From positions 47,430,001 through 47,494,000 of the forward strand of contig OX597833.1 in the NCBI GenBank assembly GCA_951406725.2: a DNA stretch of 64,000 nt, read 5' to 3'. Position 1 is the first letter of the stretch. Each line of letters opens with the position of its first letter. This document shows, piece after piece, positions 14,123-61,801 of this stretch. The translations under genes were made by a program, and so were the position numbers. Source of the stretch: Octopus vulgaris (lineage: Eukaryota). The notes beneath the pieces were generated by a model that made no database searches, was not told where the DNA came from, and saw only the letters and a list, made by a program, of their open reading frames with translations.

Positions 14123-14349
14123 TATATGATATAATATAAATAATATATAAATATATGCATATATACATACATATATATGTATGTATATATGCATATATGG
14201 GTACAGGACATCAAAAAAACGTTGAACACAATGAGAAACGAAAACAGAAACGGACTTTTTTTTCAAACAACGAAAATAATAGAGAAACAAGACATACAAC
14301 ACAAGGAATATTCCCCTTCTTCAGTTGTCCCTGTTTCATCTACACCCAG

Positions 14350-17251: not shown

Positions 17252-18272
17252 GGTACCAAACTATATATCTCCCCTGGTAATTGATTTCGCTGAATGTGAA
17301 ATTCTTTAACCAGTAGTATACCTATGTTACTGTTAATTACATAGTGATATAAGCTGTTGGTATTGCTGCATTACATATTATAATCGTGATACAATGCATG
17401 ACCTCATTATAAGACTTGACCGTACTCTCTCATTTACATGTATATGTATGAGTGCAGTATAAAGCTCGTCCATCTTCAGATTTCACCCTGTGCTTTCCCG
17501 GTTTGCGTTTGGGCATCTGTCATGTGTGCATAGATGACTGAAAAAATTTGGAATCAACTGCTAAGTCCAGACCACCAAAGACAGAGAGGATATACTTTTG
17601 AAGCAGAGAATTTGAATTTACGTAGACAATATTTACATATCGCCTGAGGAAACACAACTAGGTCTCATAATGCAGGGAAACGGTTGCATAATCAAGTACT
17701 TGCACGCCTGGAGAACTGCGATGCGTAGAAACAACTGTAGTGATTGAAAATAAATGTCCAACTGTACTCCTCCTTGTTGAATGTCCGTATACCATATATG
17801 GATATGCCAGGGTGTGTGCGTTTAAGGTGTAATAATAAAGTGATATGCGGGAACGACTGTTTCATCGAAGTCGCGCCTTGTCCTTACCTTTGAAAAGCGG
17901 GGTAGATGAAACAGGGACAACTGAAGAAGGAGAATATTGCTTGTGTTGTATGTCTTGTTTCTCTATTATTTTCGTTGTTTGAAAAAAAAAGTCCGTTTCT
18001 GTTTTCGTTTCTCATTGTGTTCAACGTTTTTTTGATGTCCTGTACCCATATATGCATGTATATATACATATATATGTATGTATATATGCATATAGTTTAT
18101 ATATTATATTATATATATATATATTTAATGTAGGATAAATTTTTTTCGAAAAAATAAATTTTATCAGTGGCCAGCATATTAAAAAATACCTTTAAAGGTT
18201 AAATTTATAAACAGCTAATAAATAAGGGCAAATGAAAAAAATTCTAATGCCAAATATGCCGAAATTAGACAC

Positions 18273-18578
18273 TCACCCCCAATAGGGGCCTTAACTTCCA
18301 CATTTTAGACCTCCATGACCTCCGTTTTTTCAGGAGCAAAATCCTTTTAACAGGTTCCATAAGACTGGAATTTTGGAATCTGCGCATAAAGATCAGTAGT
18401 GTGGGATACATGTGCTACGATTAGAATTTTTTAGGGTGTGTAAAGAGGAAAAGAACTCTCATCTGTAATTTTGATGAAAATCGAATCATAGGTATTCCAG
18501 TTCATTAGAGAAAATATAACAGAAAAGTCTAATTCTTCAATTGCCTGTAACACGGGCAACGCCGGGTATCTCTGCTAG
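18273..18578 (+). mobile_element. Helitron 3' fragment
   Basis: Ends CACGGGCAACGCCGGGTATCTCTGCTAG followed by T, the same terminal motif as the 11200 element. Confidence 0.7.
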
Positions 18579-18598
18579 TATGTATATATATATATATA

Positions 18599-18946
18599 CT
18601 TTATTTAAAAGCAGCAGAAATATAACAAAAGCTGTTACTCGAGTTTCACGTTCCCGTTTGTCGGACAGTTTTGTTAAAAAAAAACTTGCTGGCCTAGTGC
18701 CAAAATTTGAAACCAATATTATCACATTATTTTTAATCCATTTCATAACTGAATAACCCAATTGTTATCACTTAACAAAACCATTTTTTTGTTTTTAACA
18801 AAACTGTCCGACGAACGGGAACGTGAAACTCCGAGTAACAGCTTTTGTTATATTTCTGCTGCTTTTAAATAAAGCATATTACTCTACCTCTGGCATTTGA
18901 GTACTCTTTTTTTCCACTTTGTTTCACATTTATGTGCTTACTCCAG
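18599..18946 (+). mobile_element. Penelope-like terminal module with partial inverted repeat and two hammerhead-like motifs, in (TA)n
   Basis: Inverted arms 18599-18680 / 18793-18875. Motifs at 18632-18668 (-) and 18804-18841 (+). Homologous to 45313-45545. Confidence 0.75.
18804..18841 (+). ncRNA. Minimal hammerhead-ribozyme-like motif (CCGACGA core variant)
   Basis: CTGT CCGACGA ACG-GGAA-CGT GAAA CTC-C-GAG TA ACAG. Confidence 0.65.
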
Positions 18947-42575: not shown

Positions 42576-42779
42576 TTCGAAACGTGGAGTAGATGAAACA
42601 AAAACAACTGAAGAAGGGAAATATACTTTATGTTGTATGTCTCGTTTCTATGTTTTTGTTTTTATGTTTTCGTTTCTCATTGTGTTCAACGGTCCTTTGA
42701 TGTCCTGTACCCATATATGCATGTGTATATATACATGTAGGTATGTACATATATGTATATATATATATATATAAGCATA

Positions 42780-45296
<2,517 letters not shown>

Positions 45297-45345
45297 AATA
45301 TATATATATATACTTTATTTTAAGCAGCAGAAAATTCAACAAAAT

Positions 45346-45382
45346 CTGTTACTCTGAGTTTCTCGTGCCGTTCATCAGACAG
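45346..45382 (-). ncRNA. Minimal type I hammerhead ribozyme motif (canonical core)
   Basis: CTGT CTGATGA ACG-GCA-CGA GAAA CTC-A-GAG TA ACAG. Confidence 0.75.
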
Positions 45383-45405
45383 TTTTTGCTAGATTCTAGC
45401 AAAAA

Positions 45406-45443
45406 CTGTCTGATGAACGACAACGAGAAACTCAGAGTAACAG
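45406..45443 (+). ncRNA. Minimal type I hammerhead ribozyme motif (canonical core)
   Basis: CTGT CTGATGA ACG-ACAA-CGA GAAA CTC-A-GAG TA ACAG; predicted cleavage after GUA (45439). Confidence 0.78.
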
Positions 45444-45543
45444 ATTTTGTTGAATTTTCTGCTGCTTAAAATAAAGCATATTACTCTACCACTGGTATTT
45501 GAGTACTTTTTTCCACCTTGTTTCACATTTATGTGTTTACTCC

Positions 45544-45581
<38 letters not shown>

Positions 45582-45651
45582 CATATATTTATATATTATT
45601 TATATTATTACATGATCGAACGTCACGCATCCTTTTCTAAGTAAGTTTCAT

Positions 45652-46915: not shown

Positions 46916-48670
46916 TTGCAGAAAGTCAAAGCATAACAAATCACTAGTCTGAGTTTCTCGGTTCCGGTCTTCGAACGATTACCAAAAATGGAACATACAA
47001 CTAATTTATAATAGATGCAGTGGACATGTTTAAATGTTATAAAAGGCGCTGATGGCATAACATGAACTGAGAGAAACCTACTGATTGAAAATAAAGCAGT
47101 TATTTGGAAAATAAGAAGGCTGCTAATTAGAAGAGAGATGAGGTTACGAAAAATCTAATTTCTTTTGCGGACAATAACTAACTATTCAAGGGAAATAACC
47201 TAAAATTTTAGATGTCGAGGAATTACATAAAAGAGGTGATGAAATCCGTATTGTTTTAAATATTCTGATTATTCTAGAAACTATCCGCTTTGTAGGACAT
47301 AGTTGGAATGTAGGAGTCTTGATTCGCATCTACAACAGTTTAATTAATATCACAGACTTTTCGCTTAAGGCATGAATGTCTTCAAATAAAATAAATAAAT
47401 TTTCACCTAGACATAATTTACAGCGCAAATTCTCGTTAAAACTGATATGCACTAGTAGCGAAGCATGCTCAATGGTTCAAAATTTGATCGCAAATGCTGC
47501 CAGACTTATTTCTTTTAAAAACCAAAAATATACTTAGAAAGACGTGTGAATATTTTTCCGGATTCTTGAATGAACTTTCCTGTATCTTTCTAAATGGAAT
47601 TTGTGGGAAAATCCAGCGACTAAACTTCTGAATTCAACTGATCTGTCTGGAATGCTTTATTTTAAAAGTTAGTGTTAGATAAATACTTAAGAATGAACAA
47701 GAAGAGATTCCTTACTAACGAAGTTAGATTATGATAATTTATTGGACTCGTTACTCTAAGTATCTCGTAACCACCTTTCAGACGATTATTAATATTGAAA
47801 CAAAAAACTACTTTATAATCGCCATACAGTTGGCCTCTTTGAAAGTTATAACAAGCACTGATTGAGTAAACATAACCGTTACTTGAAAAAATAGACAATG
47901 GAGGTTATCATTTGCAGAAGAGAATTTTAAGTTGTATAAATGATTAAATATATAAATGTAAAAATATGTTTTTAAAAAAATCTTGTGCGGGAATATATTT
48001 TTTATTGCATGAGTAAAAAAAAAATATTGTTCAACGGAAGTATTTCAAAATCTTTGAATATTCTAAAATACATCCATCTCAAAAAAAAAAAAACAAAAAA
48101 ACAAAAGCAGATGAAACGATCCGAATTTTTTTTTTTTTTCAATATTCAGAATTTTCCTTAAATAATAGTTCTGAAAAAAGTATTTTTTTTGCGTGTCTAC
48201 AACAGTCAAGTATCTTTGTTTCTATCTTTAAATGATGCTTTGAAATAAAATGAATAACTTTCATTTAGACATAATTTAGTGCACAATATTTTTTCTTGAA
48301 CTAAAAATCTGAAATTTAATGTAAGATATCTTCAATTTATTCTTTTAAAATTATAAAGCTTTGAAATATAAATAAATGCTTATATCTTCGCGGGGAAGAA
48401 TGATATTGGAATTACTCTGATTTGTCTCATCTCTATTTGGAGACTCACCCGAAACATTTAACATAATATTCTACATACGAAGAAAATAATAGTTTAAACA
48501 CAAACACAAACCAGAACTCTTTTTAAAAAGAATAGTCTAATTTGCATAACTGCATATTCCTTGGTAGCATTATTCACAGCACATCATATACTGGATAATT
48601 ATGTTGTGCATAATTAATTTATTACCCGAAATCACTGCAATGCAAATTAGACAGGCCTTTTCGGCTGAGT

Positions 48671-52529: not shown

Positions 52530-52925
52530 CTAGCAGTATCGCCCGGCGTTGCTCGGGTTTGTAAGGGAAATAATTATATAACCATTTTTTAGAGATGTAA
52601 AGTATAATAGCCATCTCAATATGGCTAACCACAAAGGGGGAGGGGTGTTACTGTAGCTTTTTACGTTCTGAGATTTAATAATAAATTTTAGAGAGTTACT
52701 TCCCTTATATATGTCAAAAATGGATTAAAAATGGGAAAAATTGATGGTAATTTTTTTTTTAAATCGTAGACTCATCGTAGACGCGCGCTAATACCCAGAC
52801 GGTCTCGATATGAATCACGACTATAAGATACCCGGTTTTGGTTAAACTGCACCGCAAAATGTGGGAGTAGTTAGGAATCTAAATCGTAGGAGATAGACAC
52901 ACAAACTCACTTTTATATATAAAGA
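52530..52925 (-). mobile_element. Short non-autonomous Helitron (396 bp)
   Basis: Minus strand A/TCTTTATATATAAAAGTGAG ... CCCGAGCAACGCCGGGCGATACTGCTAG/T. Confidence 0.88.
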
Positions 52926-52988
52926 TTTCCTCTATTTACATAATATTGAGGTCTCTTTCTTTCTTTTGTTATCTTACTGTTTTTACCA

Positions 52989-53059
<71 letters not shown>

Positions 53060-53119
53060 CAGAGATGTACTTGCATAGCAAGTGACTTGATCTGAGATCG
53101 TGTGCTGGAACGAAAACAG

Positions 53120-53377
53120 TTGCAGCGTTGAAGGTGTTTATAAGCCATTTAAGAAACACACAAAAACTGTTAGATTCACTTCAACATTTAAATTTAATTT
53201 GTCAAAATATTTTCGTCGCTTTGAGACCGCGACCTGTTAGCACGATATTTTTGTCAGTGAACAGGTCGCGGTCTCAAAGCGAGGAAAATATTTTGGCAAA
53301 TTAAATTTAAATGTTGAAGTGAATCTAACGGTTTTTGTGTGTTTCTTAAATGGCTTACAAACACCTTCCACGCTGCA
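53120..53377. repeat. Fold-back repeat in (TA)n (about 115-bp arms)
   Basis: 53121-53238 is the reverse complement of 53260-53377. Confidence 0.85.
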
Positions 53378-53397
53378 TATATATATATACACACATA

Positions 53398-53428
<31 letters not shown>

Positions 53429-53752
53429 GTGTATATGTGTATGCATGTATGTGTGTGTGTGTGTGCGTGTCTGTGCTTGTGATTGTCCTCCACCACTGCT
53501 TGACAACGAATGTTGGTTTGTTTACATCCCTGTCACCTAGTGGTTTGATAAAGGAAACAGATAGAATAAGTACAATGCTTACAAAAATAAAACTGGAGTT
53601 GATTCATTAAACTACAATTCTTCAAGGCATTGCCCCAGCATGGCCACAGACCAATGGCTGGAAAAAGCAGAAGAATAAAAGAATACATTCTCTGCTTTGG
53701 TCTTATGTTCAAGGCATGAGAAAGCTTGAGTTTACATGAGAAGGCCTAACAG

Positions 53753-54016
53753 GCCTGGTAGAAACAGCAGCCAAATCTCCCTCAAATCACACCTTACTGT
53801 CTTATGTATGTATATATATATGAGCCAATGAGGGGGACCTCTACATGGTAGCTAGACCTGGTAGAAATAGCAGCCAAATTTCCCCCAAATCACACCTTAC
53901 TGTCTTATCTATGTATATATGTATGTATGAGCCTATGAGGGAGACCCCTACATGGCAGCTAGACATGGTAGAAATAGCAGCCAAATCTCCCTCAAATCAC
54001 ACCTTACTGTCTTATG

Positions 54017-54020
<4 letters not shown>
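53753..54020. repeat. Three-copy tandem repeat, about 100-bp unit
   Basis: GGTAGAAA(C/T)AGCAGCCAAAT.TCCC.CAAATCACACCTTACTGTCTTAT occurs three times. Confidence 0.9.
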
Positions 54021-54052
<32 letters not shown>

Positions 54053-54076
54053 AGCCACTACGGTTATTTAATGTAA

Positions 54077-56086
54077 AGTCTTCCTCAAATCACTCTCGCT
54101 ATTTACTCTCTTCCAAGAACATTTTCACTCACTCTTATCTCTTAGCTTGCCATACATTTTACTCATGTATCTATCAGCGTGATAGACAGAAACAAATATT
54201 ACATCGCCATCGCCATCGCATTCTATTGTCTACCTGTCAACACACACACAGTGAATTACTTTCATTTTATTCGTTGCACACTGTGTGTGTGTGCGTGTGC
54301 GTGTGGTGTAAACCACATTAAGAAAAGCATTTGACATACACACCAGAATGTGAGTTTTCTGTAAATTTTGCTTAATTGGAGTTTAAATTTTAAAAACTGG
54401 ACCTGGCATGACTCGATGCATTCTACTCTTAAAAATGCTAGGTAAATTGTAATTGAAGAAATCCTATATTGTAGATTTCTATAACTGACAAAGGGAGGCA
54501 GATAAAATCTGCCTTTTATAATAAGACTAGCAGTATCGCCCGGCGTTGCTCGGTTTGTAAGGGAAATAACTATATAAGCATTTTTAGAGAGTTATAGCCA
54601 AAAAATAGCAAAAAAATGCATCAAAAATTGAAAAAAAATTAAGGTAAATTTTTTTTTAAATCGTTGACACATCGTAGATATTTTTAGAGAGTTACTTCCC
54701 TTATATAAAAGCGAAAAAAATGCATTAAAATGGAAAAATATGATGGTAAATTATTTTAAAATCGTAGACTCATCGTAGACGCACGCTAATACCCAGAAGG
54801 GCTCGATATGAATCACGACTATAAGATACCCGCTTTTGGTTAAACGGCACCGCAAAATGTGGGAGTAGTTACGAATCTAAATCGTAGGAGACAGACACAC
54901 AACTTCACTCTTATATAAAGATGCTTTTTTTTTTCAGTCATAGAGTTAGATTTATGAAGGTCTTCAGTAGAAAATCCTTCGAATTCTGACTCGCTGCTTG
55001 ATATAATGAAATTCGTATCCATTTTTTGTCAGAATTACAAATTTTGAAAAGACAATAGGAACAAATTTCGGAAAAAAATCTCCCATAATTCACGGAATTA
55101 AAATTACAGTTCGATTTTTGTACAAAACTGTAGTTGAAGTGTTTACGAAGTATAATACGTGTTTTCACGAATGTACTAAAGAGATTTGCTCTGATATTCT
55201 CATTTAAATATGAATAGGTAAATTCGGGCGGCTTGGTAACTATATATAAGTGTCGTCTGTTTATACATAAACACTGTTTCATACTGCAATTATATATACA
55301 TATATCTATATATAATATTATATAATAAAATATATACAGAGTAAAATAAAAACCAATTTACCTTTTCTGTCCGTACGTGTGTCTTTGCAAATGTGTTGGA
55401 ATGATAAGTGAGTTGAGTTTTGGCGCCTTTTTTACTAATAACAAACACACACGTGTTTGTATGTATATGTATGTGTATGTAGTTGTATGTAGTTGTATAT
55501 GTATGTGTATGCGTGTGGGTGAGGAATGACACACACACACTCACGCACGCACACATGTACATCAATGCTTTCGGAGTGATATGTTAAAATATTGAGTTTT
55601 CTCGAATTTTGTCTTAATTGGTGGTAAAATTGAAAGAAATTTTTTATGGCATCACCCACTGAAGTACTCTGAAAAATCTTAGGTAAATTGTAATTGAAGA
55701 AATTGTGTGAGGAGTAAATGGTTATGTATTTATTTGTTTCTGTTTGCTGTGTTTTTTTATTTTTTGAGTAGTGGTTTAAATACTTTCAGTTTAGTCTTCC
55801 TCAAATCACTCTGTCGCTATTTACTTTCATTTTATTCGTTGCACACTGTGTGTGCGCGTTTGCGTGTGGTGTAAACCAGACTAAGAAAAGCATTTGACAC
55901 ACACACCAGAATGTGAGTTTTCTGTAAATTTTGTTTAATTGGAGTTTAAATTTTAAAAACTGGACCTGGCATGACGCGATGCATTATACTCTTAAAAATG
56001 CTAGGTAAATTGTAATTGAAGAAATCCTATATTGTAGATTTGTATAACTCCCAAAGGGAGGCAGATAAAATCTGCCTTTTATAATA

Positions 56087-56089
<3 letters not shown>
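54077..56089 (-). mobile_element. Composite non-autonomous Helitron tandem (partial unit 54077-54526, full unit 54527-56089)
   Basis: Junction TAATAAGA/CTAGCAG at 54526/54527. Right end TAATAAGA followed by (TA)n. Confidence 0.88.
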
Positions 56090-56144
<55 letters not shown>

Positions 56145-56296
56145 TACTAATATAGGATGAAGTTTTTTCTCTACAGAAAAAAATTCCATCAATAAATGTG
56201 GCAGCATATTTAAATACCTTTACGGTTAAAATTATAAATAAGGGCTAAAGAAAATGATTTCAATGCAATAATTTTCTTTAGCCCTATATATATATA

Positions 56297-59200
56297 CTAG
56301 CAGTATCGCCCGGCGTTGCTCGGTTTGTAAGGGAAATAACTATATAAGCATTTTTAGAGAGTTATAGCCAAAAAATAGCAAAAAAATGCATTAAAAATTG
56401 AAAAAAAATTAAGGTAAATTTTTTTTTTAAATCGTTGACACATCGTAGATATTTTTAGAGAGTTACTTCCCTTATATAAAAGCGAAAAAAATGCATTAAA
56501 ATGGAAAAATATGATGGTAAATTTTTTAAAAATCGTAGACTCATCGTAGACGCGCGCTAATACCCAGAAGGGCTCGATATGAATCACGACTATAAGATAC
56601 CCGCTTTTGGTTAAACTGCACCGCAAAATGTGGGAGTAGTTACGAATCTAAATCGAAGGGGACAGACACACAACTTCACTCTTATATAAAGATGCTTTTT
56701 TTTTTCAGTGATAGAGTTAGATTTATGAAGGTCTTCAGTAGAAAATCCTTCGAATTCTGACTCGCTGCTTGATATAATGAAATTCGTATCCATTTTTTGT
56801 CAGAATTACAAATTTTGAAAAGACAATAGGAACAAATTTCGGAAAAAAATCTCCCATAATTCACGGAATTAAAATTACACTTTGATTTTTGTACAAAACT
56901 GTATTTGAAGTGTTTACGAAGTATAATACGTGTTTTCACGAATGTACTAAAGAGATTTACTCTGATATTCTCATTTAAATATGAATAGGTAAATTCGGGC
57001 GGTTTGGTAACGAAAGGGTTTATATAAGTGTCGTCTGTTTATACATAAACACTGTTTCATAGTTTCAGTTTAGTCTTCCTCAAATCACTCTGTCGCTAAT
57101 TTACTCTCTTCCAAGAACATTTTCACTCACTGTTATCTGTTAGCTCCCCATACATTTTACTCATGTATCTATCAGCGTGATAGAGAGAAACAAATATTAC
57201 ATCTAGCTTCACTTTATTCGTTGCCCACTGTGTGTGTGCGTTTGCGTGTGCTGTAAACCAGACTAAGAAAAGCATTTGACACACACACCAGAATGTGAGT
57301 TTTCTGTAAATTTTGCTTAATTGGAGTTTAAATTTTAAAAACTGGACCTGGCATGACGCGATGCATTGTACTCTTAAAAATGCCAGGTAAATTGTAATTG
57401 AAGAAATCCTATATTGTAGATTTGTATAACTCCCAAAGGGAGGCAGATAAAATCTGCCTTTTATAATAAGACTAGCATTATCGCCCGGCGTTGCTCGGGT
57501 TTGTAAGGGAAATAACTATATAAGCATTTTTAGAGAGTTATAGCCAAAAAATAGCAAAAAAATGCATTAAAAATTGGAAAAAAATTAAGGTAAATTTTTT
57601 CTAAATCGTTGACACGTCGTAGATATTTTTAGAGAGTTACTTCCCTTATATAAAAGCGAAAAAAATGCATTAAAATGGAAAAATATGATGGTAAATTTTT
57701 TTAAAATCGTAGACTCATCGTAGACGCACGCTAATACCCAGAAGGGCTCGATATGAATCACGACTATAAGATACCCGCTTTTGGTTAAACTGCACCGCAA
57801 AATGTGGGAGTAGTTAGGAATCTAAATCGTAGGAGACAGACACACAACTTCACTCTTATATAAAGATGCTTTTTTTTTCAGTCATAGAGTTAGATTTATG
57901 AAGGTCTTCAGTAGAAAATCCTTCGAATTCTGACTCGCTGCTTGATATAATGAAATTCGTATCCATTTTTTGTCAGAATTACAAATTTTGAAAACACAAT
58001 AGGAAATGAGTAAAATAAAAACCAATTTACCTTTTCTGTCCGTCCGTGTGTCTTTGCAAATGTGTTGGAATGATAAGTGAGTTGTGATTTGGCGCCTTTT
58101 TTTACTAATAACAAACACACACGTGTTTGTATGTAGTTGTATGTGTATGTAGTTGTATATGTATGTGTATGCGTGTGTGTGAAGAATGACACACACACAC
58201 TCACGCACGCACACATGTACATCAATGCTTTCGGAGTGATATGTTAAAATATTGAGTTTTCTCGAATTTTGTCTTAATTGGTGGTAAAATTGAAAGAAAT
58301 TTTTTATGGCATCACCCACTGAAGTACTCTGAAAAATCTTAGGTAAACTCTAATTGAAGAAATTGTGTATTTATTTGTTTCTGTTTGCTGTGTTTTTTTA
58401 TTTTTTGAGTAGTGGTTTAAATACTTTCACTTTAGTCTTCCTCAAATCACTTTGTCGCTATTTACTTTCATTTTATTCGTCGCACACTGTGTGTGTGCGT
58501 TTGCGTGTGGTGTAAACCAGACTAAGAAAAGCATTTGACACACACACCAGAATGTGAGTTTTCTGTAAATTTTGCTTAATTGGAGTTTAAATTTTAAAAA
58601 CTGGACCTGGCATGACGCGATGCATTGTACTCTTAAAAATGCTAGGTAAATTGTAATTGAAGAAATCCTATATTGTAGATTTGTATAACTCCCAAAGGGA
58701 GGCAGATAAAATCTGCCTTTTATAATAAGACTAGCAGTATCGCCCGGCGTTGCTCGGGTTTGTAAGGGAAATAACTATATAAGCATTTTTAGAGAGTTAT
58801 AGCCAAAAAGTAGCAAAAAAATGCATTAAAAATTGAAAAAAAATTAAGGTAAATTTTTCTTTAAATCGTTGACACATCGTAGATATTTTTAGAGAGTTAC
58901 TTCCTTATATAAAAGCGAAAAAATGCATTAAAATGGAAAAATATGATGGTAATTTTTTTTTAAATCGTAGACTCATCGTAGACGCGCGCTAATACCCAGA
59001 AGGGCTCGTTTGTTATTCTGGGTAACTTTCTGTAAAATTATTAAAATTTTGTTCAAACATCGCTATAGAAAATGGGTTATTAGCTAATATTCAATTGGGT
59101 ATACAACAAAATTTTACGATAGAATTTGTTATTCTGGGTAACTTTCTGTAAAATTATTAAAATTTTGTTCAAACATCGCTATAGAAAATGGGTTATTAGC

Positions 59201-59862
59201 TAATATTCAATTGGGTATACAACAAAATTTTACAATAGAATTTGTTATTCTGGGTAACTTTCTGATACCCATAATAATATTTATGGCAAAATAGGCCTTA
59301 ATTTCATTTAAGATTGTGGGAAATAACAAACTATCCTTTCTTTCGGTTTGTTTACGTTTAGCGTAATGATTTCAAATAGGCTCATTCGAAAAAGTAAATA
59401 GAAATAGTCTAAGGCTTTACTCTTCTGGGAAAGTCAGTGGCTTGGTCCAGTTTCTTCAGAAAACTCACCGAAAGAAACAGTTTTTAAATTTTCACTCCAT
59501 TCAGGTACCAATTCGTTTTCTTTATCGCTGTCGGATTCACTGTTTTCACTTTAATAGCTGCCAACTTGCAAAACAAAGGAGGAGAAGGGTGATAGCGTCA
59601 GTGAAACAATTCGCTCCCTTTGTGTGTGTGTGCGTTTGCGTGTGGTGTAAACCAGACTAAGAAAAACATTTGACACGCACACCAGAATGTGAGTTTTCTG
59701 TAAATTTTGCTTAATTGGAGTTTAAATTTTAAAAACTGGACCTGGCATGACGCGATGCATTGTACTCTTAAAATTGCTAGGTAAATTGTAATTGAAGAAA
59801 TCCTATATTGTAGATTTGTATAACTCCCAAAGGGAGGCAGATAAAATCTGCCTTTTATAATA

Positions 59863-59867
<5 letters not shown>
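56297..59867 (-). mobile_element. Composite non-autonomous Helitron trimer (56297-57471, 57472-58730, 58731-59865)
   Basis: Exact head-to-tail junctions at 57471/57472 and 58730/58731; flanked by (TA)n on both sides. Confidence 0.9.
59009..59264. repeat. 116-bp tandem repeat (2.2 copies) inside the last Helitron unit
   Basis: TTTGTTATTCTGGGTAACTTTCTG starts at 59009, 59125 and 59241. Confidence 0.92.
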
Positions 59868-59926
<59 letters not shown>

Positions 59927-60684: not shown

Positions 60685-61664
60685 ACAGACTCACACAGAC
60701 ACACACATACACACACGCACACTATCTCTTATCCTTATAAAAAGCAAAGTTTGTTTGTTTGTACGTTGATCGCCGAAAACACTAAATAAAATGGATAATA
60801 TTTCAGGTTTTTCGTGCCATTTAAATGAATTTGACCATTCCGCGGATAAATGTGCACTTCTTTTCCGAAAACAGACTGGTAAGGATGAGATTGGTGGTGC
60901 ATTGGTTCCTATTTCTAGCAATCCACGTACTGTCTATTTCACCGTAGAGTATATATATCCGTATAAAAAAGCAAATTTTGTTTTTTCGTTGACCGCTGAA
61001 AACACTAAATAAAATTGATATTTCAGGTTTTTCGTGTCATTTAAATTAACTTGACCATTCCACAGATAAATGTGCCTTTCTTTTTCCAAAACGGAATGGG
61101 TGGAGGTGGGGCTGGGTTGTTAGTGCATTGGTTCCTATTTCTAGCAATCCACGTGCTGTCTATTTCACAGTAATACTTTTTACGGAGTGAAAAATACTTC
61201 ACCTATCACTCAACCGACCTCTAATTTTCTCTAAGTTATACATTGCATTTATTCCTTTGAAGTCGCCGCCGGATCTCAGCTTTCTCTCTATCTATACACC
61301 CGTCTTTATGTCTCTATCTCCCCCCTCTCTCTCGTTGTATATGTGTGTCTCTCTACCTCTACCTCTTTTTCTCTCTTGAGATAAATATGTGAGACATATA
61401 GAAAGCGGGGTTAGGGAGAAAAAAACAAGCAAGACACAGGTGAGTGGAGATAGCCACATTTATAAACCTATCGACAAAACTGTCGATGAGGACGATTCTG
61501 TTCATTTTCCTGATGAATTCCTCAACAGTCCGGAACCATCCGGTATACCGCCACACAACCTTGAATTGAAGAAGGGCGCAGTCATCATGCTTCTCAAAAA
61601 CTTGGATCAGCCAAGATTGCGCAATGGTACACATATGGTTGCGACTGAACTACAGCCTCGCCTT

Positions 61665-61801
61665 AGGCGCAGGAGTGGCTGTGTGGTAAGTAGCTTGCTT
61701 ACCAACCACATGGTTCCGGGTTCAGTGTCTTCTACTATAGCCTCGGGCCGACCAAAACCTTGTGAGTGGATTTGGTAGACGGAAACTGAAAGAAGCCTGT
61801 C

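Follow-up and report, generated by a model that had tools for sequence, protein, structure and literature searches.

The analysed window, 64,000 nt of Octopus vulgaris (GenBank assembly GCA_951406725.2, contig OX597833.1, positions 47,430,001 to 47,494,000 of the forward strand), contains at 45313-45545 a fold-back module with a hammerhead ribozyme motif on each strand, which raises the question of whether such a module is a purpose-built twin ribozyme or the product of some other process. The sequence-only reading of this locus had described a near-perfect hairpin inserted into (TA)n, and both parts of that description were borne out. A 164-bp palindrome spans 45313-45476 with its centre at T45394, its arms (45313-45393 and 45395-45476) are one substitution and one 1-nt gap apart, and (TA)n lies on either side of the module (15 nt at 45298-45312 and 35 nt at 45546-45580). 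The hairpin has a fold z-score of -22.9, and none of 200 shuffled sequences was equally stable.

The picture of two twin arms held only in part: each arm does carry a hammerhead motif, but the module is asymmetric, with a 69-nt tail (45477-45545, + strand) on the right arm only. The left arm (45313-45393, - strand) is an inverted, tail-less copy of the 3' end of an element; it has its 5' end 15 nt before the hammerhead core, and its 3' end (site A) is the mirror of G45476. The right arm belongs to the sense copy (45393-45545, + strand), which consists of the hammerhead, a 37-nt linker to site A and the tail running to site B. This copy begins at A45393, at -17 from the core, and as the upstream sequence ending in CC continues in other copies, the boundary falls between CC and ATT. 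Within the tail there is a further hairpin (45482-45505, + strand) of the form ACTC...GAGTACT, which in related families reads GCTC...GAGCACT. Arms in the window thus stop at -15 and -17 relative to the core, the breakpoints available from the window of this genome numbering three. Copying runs across the cleavage site in both arms, so their templates were uncleaved. An ORF starting from the ATG in the core was dropped from consideration, as by eye it extends for 19 codons only.

The earlier claim of one hammerhead per strand, reading CTGT-CTGATGA-stem II-GAAA-CTCAGAG-TA-ACAG, was confirmed for the motifs at 45406-45443 (+ strand) and 45346-45382 (- strand). In the sense arm, this minimal type I motif comprises stem I (45406-45409 with 45440-45443), the core (45410-45416), stem II (45417-45426, two base pairs with an A.A closing), GAAA (45427-45430) and a palindromic stem III (45430-45438), with a predicted cleavage site after A45439. 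The minimal type I motif of the inverted arm is 1 nt shorter, with GCA as its stem II loop. The elements CUGANGA, GAAA and UH are present in both arms of 45313-45476, and stem I can be extended to approximately 15 bp with two mismatches, reaching A45393. A strict motif scan of the window returned three matches (the two in the module and one at 13835), where the chance expectation is 0.01 motif per Markov-resampled window (100 resamplings). The label "canonical" is nevertheless an overstatement: stem II consists of 2 bp (CG/CG) closed by an A10.1.A11.1 mismatch rather than by G10.1-C11.1, no match at gathering score was obtained from Rfam in the window, and no Rfam hammerhead family was found at E <= 10 over 45250-45600. 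The miRNA-like Rfam matches that were obtained lie far below gathering thresholds and reflect the hairpin only.

It had also been proposed that transcription in either direction would produce a hammerhead. The motifs are indeed there to be transcribed, but the predicted read-through RNA is double-stranded and buries both of them. The predicted probability of stem I is 0.0 in this transcript, compared with 0.36-0.83 in a single arm, so such an RNA would be dsRNA and not an active ribozyme. The fold of a single arm is on a par with shuffled sequences (z 0.03), and the predicted energies are +1.9 kcal/mol for the monomer core and -7.4 kcal/mol for the stem III self-duplex. Any cleavage by the hammerhead would require a stem III dimer or the aid of a protein; dimer cleavage of hammerheads from Penelope-like elements (PLEs) is reported to be weak (PMC4209133). 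A cleavage-competent RNA would need to start at the centre of the hairpin, read-through RNA being a predicted 81-bp duplex.

We conclude that the module is most likely a single, extremely 5'-truncated insertion of a Penelope-like retrotransposon of the Hydra clade (probability approximately 0.85). The earlier interpretation as a non-coding, TA-targeting, Penelope-like remnant fits this assignment, which narrows it to one clade. A designed twin ribozyme was rejected, the one-per-strand layout being that of an ordinary inverted 5'-truncated PLE copy. Features of PLEs present here are the inverted 5'-truncated copy adjoining the insertion, the one-sided tail in both copies in the window (69-72 nt) and the type I hammerhead motif in the terminal repeat, and a feature of Hydra is the insertion into (TA)n (flanks of 15/35 and 16/23 nt in the two copies). 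Inverted truncated copies and one-sided tails of 30-40 nt have been published for PLEs, as have the (TA)n preference and the hammerheads of Hydra elements (PMC8557442). The tails in the window are twice the length given in the PLE literature, which counts against the assignment. For the module itself, the assignment to Hydra is based on RNA motifs that it shares, on architecture and on a weak, separate remnant described below, and no ORF of its own family was seen.

Comparison with known systems draws on the accessible portions of the sources cited. Hydra-2_Amil and Hydra-2_Ajap (Craig et al. 2021, PMC8557442) share with the module stem I CTGT/ACAG, stem III ACTC-N-GAGT, the cleavage base A, a hammerhead near the 3' end, a (TA)n target and a tail hairpin ending in GAG(C/T)ACT. 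Compared with these elements, the module has a shorter stem II (2-3 bp with a GNRA-type loop, closed by A.A, A.G or A-U), and its linker and tail are otherwise unrelated in sequence; mismatched stem II closing is common in Hydra hammerheads (PMC8557442). Hydra-1_Obim differs from the module in its hammerhead and end and is not of the same family, and the six new Hydra consensus sequences in the portion of PMC8557442 available to us do not include the family of the module. In the same source, Penelope-13_HM carries hammerheads on both strands via an inverted copy, as the module does. Four of five motifs from the window were absent from the supplement text of Craig et al., in which line breaks can hide matches, and the fifth fell in unrelated sequence in two of the three places shown.

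The minimal hammerheads of metazoan PLEs (Cervera and de la Pena 2014, PMC4209133) resemble those of the module in their short stem I, palindromic stem III and scattered truncated copies, but their consensus has a conserved G10.1-C11.1 pair and a long stem II that the module lacks. Opposite-strand hammerhead pairs in PLEs are 100-700 bp apart (PMC4209133), and the cores of the module's two arms are 31 nt apart. The Poseidon PAc element of Anolis (Frangieh et al. 2024, PMC11167929) likewise has two 3' ends past the hammerhead that define a tail, an AT-rich target and copies made from uncleaved RNA, but it belongs to another clade and its tail is 30-40 nt rather than 69-72 nt. Non-LTR retrozymes (bioRxiv 10.64898/2026.07.22.740005) are also non-coding, carry a type I hammerhead and derive from PLE pLTRs; these are head-to-tail tandem repeats, whereas the module is a head-to-head pair with PLE-type ends.

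Further evidence comes from relatives in metagenomes. The scan pattern was the window's own stem I, core and stem III, and the core match in relatives is thus by construction. At least 120 loci (an estimated 160 or so) gave at least 138 matches, and the main families among the listed loci either match the published Hydra-2_Amil 3' end and hammerhead row or are close to it. These families suggest coral host DNA. Linkage to a Penelope-type ORF, which the sequence-only reading had anticipated, was found in relatives with the same motifs and not in the module, where no RT plus GIY-YIG ORF is present. In listed relatives a Hydra-type endonuclease C-terminus lies upstream of the motif, and Hydra protein sequence was detected in 11 of 120 listed loci (tblastn with P0003). 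One locus (L049) has a complete 697-aa ORF that starts beyond the hammerhead, the tail and (TA)9, in contrast to the ORF of PAc, which starts in the hammerhead (PMC11167929, in its accessible portion). L049 and P0003 both show the full set of Hydra motifs given by Craig et al. (RWK, DKT, CxCX5C and CxxC/CxH). No Pfam family was recognised in P0001 or P0002, and the Hydra identity therefore rests on published Hydra motifs and sequences and on the comparison of L049 and P0003.

Stem covariation was found, with both sides changing at 5 of 11 hammerhead pairs in 14 sequences (the controls ignore relatedness), and the stem II closing pair is unpaired in 6 of these 14. In the two window copies and in nine loci examined, the distance from the motif to the tail hairpin is 32-49 nt, and compensatory changes occur at two of nine pairs across this set (uncorrected for relatedness). 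The hairpin motif can also be made out by eye in Hydra-1_Ajap and Hydra-2_Ajap and, less clearly, in Hydra-1_Crog, as far as their available sequences go. The 21-nt tail motif had no match in metagenome or prokaryote contigs and the degenerate core pattern had none in viral contigs; a looser hammerhead pattern matches five viral contigs (L121-L125). Among individual loci, (TA)9 in L049 (311-555) separates the tail from the 5' UTR of the full Hydra ORF, and a second GAGCACT occurs within this UTR; pairing with the target could be aided by (UA)n in the transcript. L040 (1-618) contains a sense copy whose truncation point is 94 nt upstream of the core, and directly next to it lies an RT fragment of the same family in inverted orientation. 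From position 176 onward, L009 has two CTGATGA cores, the second approximately 110 nt downstream, an arrangement that may represent a retrozyme-like tandem repeat.

Part of the window is contained in 20 of 24 sequencing runs, seven of which contain at least half of its words. When contigs of four runs (X1, X4, X10 and X16) were aligned to 45390-45550, the family proved to be highly repeated, X1 contributing 10,767 aligning contigs and the other three runs fewer; the family is also represented in runs from organisms B and E. The aligned contigs include TA-flanked ends of both kinds, with a tail and without, and the change C45477>T (13% of X1 depth), together with ATATAT loose ends behind 45481, represents tail-less ends elsewhere. 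From loose ends before 45393 (in X10 and X16) it follows that family sequence extends further upstream, which makes A45393 a truncation point. In the majority of copies, the base at 45420 is G and the loop is GCAA. At 45426, either A or G (31%) occurs, with no T at 3% or more, and an unpaired stem II closing is therefore the norm among aligned contigs. Contig depth falls left of 45420, where edge effect and subfamily divergence are inseparable. Core variants among the aligned contigs were not listed, and as the window's own CCGACGA is also unlisted, this gives no measure of genome-wide conservation.

The position of the truncation was analysed in 113 of the 138 listed matches; those set aside were 13 duplicates and 12 that belong to neither of the two main families, and L109, another duplicate, was excluded from later counts. 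Among these listed matches, 63 of 68 uncensored 5' ends fall at -2 to -15 relative to the core, a figure that describes relatives in short-read assemblies (which favour short copies) rather than this genome and leaves out truncations inside the hammerhead, which the scan pattern cannot count. The 5'-end hazard per nt, again among matches listed, is 0.107 at -9 to -15, 0.004 at -16 to -30 and 0 at -31 to -60, and in listed copies that could be followed to approximately -57, ends from -16 to -60 are almost absent. At the other terminus, the 3' ends of the listed relatives form two groups, approximately 28-36 and 98-103 nt past the motif, and their tails are approximately 68-70 nt long.

Double-hammerhead loci show how the two kinds of end are combined. 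Eighteen such loci were listed, of which two are cut by contig ends and one is a duplicate; in the 15 informative loci among these listed matches, a tailed arm is paired with a tail-less arm in 14 (p ~1e-4), or in 13 under a stricter motif test that misses L064. In L022 (4850-5250) both arms are tail-less and the palindrome continues for more than 100 nt into flanking DNA, and we regard it as an assembly artefact or an inverted duplication. A palindromic junction with a central mismatch, like that of the module, is found at -12 in L001, L020, L063, L074 and L081. No inverted arm is present at 21 of 67 uncensored 5' ends among the listed matches, and target duplications of at least 9 nt accompany 7 of 12 listed non-inverted copies. 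In the listed matches, G occurs 5' of the boundary at -9 to -12 in 10 of 18 cases (4.8 expected, p 0.009, in a range chosen post hoc), in 12 of 33 over all boundaries (p 0.15) and in 5 of 11 non-inverted copies (p 0.14). An excess of G is what copying of a cap predicts, and these values are only suggestive.

These observations can be accommodated by the following scheme. A Hydra RT-GIY-YIG protein made elsewhere would cut both strands of the (TA)n target, and two cDNAs would be primed on uncleaved element RNA, one internally at site B (the end of the tail, 45545) and the other at site A (45476). Both steps are modelled on the biochemistry of PAc, for which two internal RT starts, cutting and extension of both strands and an uncleaved RNA template have been described in the available portion of PMC11167929. 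Both cDNAs would end 15-17 nt upstream of the hammerhead core, likely at the end of the RNA; the 5'-end statistics of relatives are our reason for placing that end at a fixed position, and they suggest that the reverse transcriptase runs off a fixed RNA 5' end. The cDNA 3' ends would then be joined via a short AAT/ATT overlap with a central mismatch, producing a palindrome centred there, and the two hammerheads would be a by-product of integration. Insertion was probably into the (TA)n of the target duplication of a neighbouring LINE, after the LINE had arrived.

If the element is indeed a Hydra PLE, we lean slightly towards a capped transcription start between YC and ATT as the feature that sets the boundary, a preference in accord with the internal pLTR promoter of Drosophila virilis Penelope (PMC2377424, in its accessible portion). 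A broader version of this model is put forward only tentatively. In it, transcription of Hydra PLEs would start 9-17 nt upstream of the hammerhead, RT initiation would be internal, at the conserved tail hairpin, the 5' repeat alone would be copied as a fixed "strong-stop"-like unit of 90-150 nt, and a hairpin with the start site at its centre would arise when twin priming joins two of these units. A splice acceptor as the cause of the boundary was dropped, there being no AG in the native sequence and the upstream letters being variable.

The main rival to a capped start accepts the same identity and attributes the short 5' end to structure, through drop-off of the RT or stalling of a 5'-3' exonuclease at a protein-bound hammerhead or at the base of stem I. 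It is the main rival because A45393 is the exact base of the 15-bp extended stem I in the window; in addition, the PAc hammerhead is protein-assisted according to the available portion of PMC11167929, and inverted partners in relatives also end inside the hammerhead. In relatives, however, stem I is only 4 bp and the 5' ends peak 5-8 nt past this stem, at two positions preceded by a pyrimidine (A-9 and A-12), with the weak excess of G noted above. A reverse transcriptase moreover meets the 3' side of a stem first. We consider a structural stop doubtful as the source of the boundary. A second possibility is a non-autonomous mini-element, SINE-like or retrozyme-like, that propagates itself: new copies, whether single arms or whole hairpins, would be made from other mini copies and not from full-length Hydra RNA. 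The very many copies, the predominance of mini copies among listed relatives (with target duplications of at least 9 nt in the 7 of 12 non-inverted copies) and the internal promoter of D. virilis Penelope all speak for it, and if the promoter is internal, the minis would form a SINE-like class able to propagate itself and independent of a defined RNA 3' end. We nevertheless think it unlikely: junctions vary by locus, meaning that each insertion forms its hairpin anew instead of moving an existing one; the head-to-tail tandem hammerhead repeats that retrozymes require are absent from this locus; and the paralog in the window retains upstream sequence.

Two further interpretations would dispense with a PLE altogether, and the asymmetry of the module bears directly on one of them. 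A fold-back or MITE-type DNA transposon, in which the resemblance to a hammerhead is inherited or accidental, would account for the long inverted repeat, the TA flanks and the lack of an ORF in the module. Its inverted repeats should lie at both termini, but the right terminus is 69 nt outside them; the spacer ranges from 1 nt to approximately 110 nt, relatives are joined to RT-EN ORFs, and the inverted arm is missing at the 21 of 67 uncensored 5' ends among listed matches. This origin is highly improbable. A bidirectional ribozyme or small-RNA hairpin gene co-opted by the host, to which the intact cores in both arms and the miRNA-like Rfam scores (below gathering thresholds) might point, we find scarcely credible, given that the module is one of very many copies, lies at a LINE junction within a microsatellite, has private stem II loop changes in each arm and has a predicted read-through fold that excludes a ribozyme.

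The Hydra-clade insertion that we favour is not alone in the window. The homologous module reported earlier at 18599-18946 (+ strand) was recovered as a paralog from a sister subfamily; arm and tail together are 87.7% identical to those of the module, both insertions share their ends, and the (TA)n flanks of the paralog measure 16 and 23 nt. It has an inverted tail-less arm (18599 to approximately 18680-18684), a unique spacer of approximately 110 nt, and a sense arm with a CCGACGA core (18808) and a 72-nt tail. The CUGAUGA core that had been described does not extend to this copy, whose cores are CCGACGA and CCGACAA; CCGAC replaces CTGAT in both of its arms, and the change was therefore already in its template. 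One arm of the paralog runs approximately 110 nt further upstream, which counts against a fixed boundary. A separate, degenerate Hydra-type 3' end is located at 46938-47713 (- strand) and ends in (TG)n. It consists of a broken C-terminal endonuclease remnant (47351-47713, - strand) upstream of a decayed hammerhead (46938-46985) with the same stem III. The remnant is a weak match (9.5 bits, compared with -0.7 or lower in seven controls, one reversed and six shuffled), in which CxxC is the only Hydra protein motif.

The module adjoins an unrelated 5'-truncated LINE (43047-45297, - strand; RVT_1, E 1e-22), whose RT is in broken frames and which has a short tandem-repeat 3' end beside an expanded (TA)n of approximately 260 nt. 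A 35-bp duplication (42756-42790 and 45562-45596), inside an older repeat, brackets the LINE plus the module and suggests that the LINE was inserted first. A second fold-back repeat, of another family, has inverted arms at 13628-13770 and 13868-14009, and its spacer contains a well-formed type I hammerhead (- strand) with a CTGAAGA core at 13835, a 6-bp stem I and a palindromic stem III; it probably has the same PLE architecture. A repeat family at 42589-42802, 14120-14345 and 17940-18125 has a CTGAAGA half core and a stem, no GAAA and a TA-rich end, and two of its motifs are absent from the supplement text of Craig et al. in the form available. Fragments of PIF1 helicase were identified at 11685-13013 (- strand) and 61380-61775 (+ strand), and the paralog starts directly after a hairpin-plus-CTAG end (18551-18578), which we take to be typical of Helitrons. 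Dispersed direct repeats of at least 300 nt with a spacing of 1.1-2.0 kb (families D9 and D11) occupy 52612-59894.

The module itself is ordinary, a truncated PLE insertion of known shape: the inverted truncated copy, the one-sided tail, the (TA)n targeting and the opposite-strand hammerhead pairs are already published. We found no published account of the 5' boundary, the tail hairpin or the pairing of tailed with tail-less arms (14 of 15 loci) in the literature available to us, which Repbase, figures and most of the subscription literature may extend. The value of the module lies in its being a footprint of a mechanism, since the formation of inverted repeats and tails in PLEs is called unresolved in the accessible text of PMC8557442. 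The sharp 5' boundary, the near-obligate pairing of tailed and tail-less arms and the conserved tail hairpin lead to three testable predictions, concerning respectively the transcription start of Hydra elements, the priming on two strands at two sites in one event and an RNA element recognised by the RT. The pattern also defines a minimal template, 150 nt long, for assaying Hydra activity in vitro. If the broader model holds and the promoter is internal, long perfect dsRNA hairpins would be scattered across the genomes of marine invertebrates.
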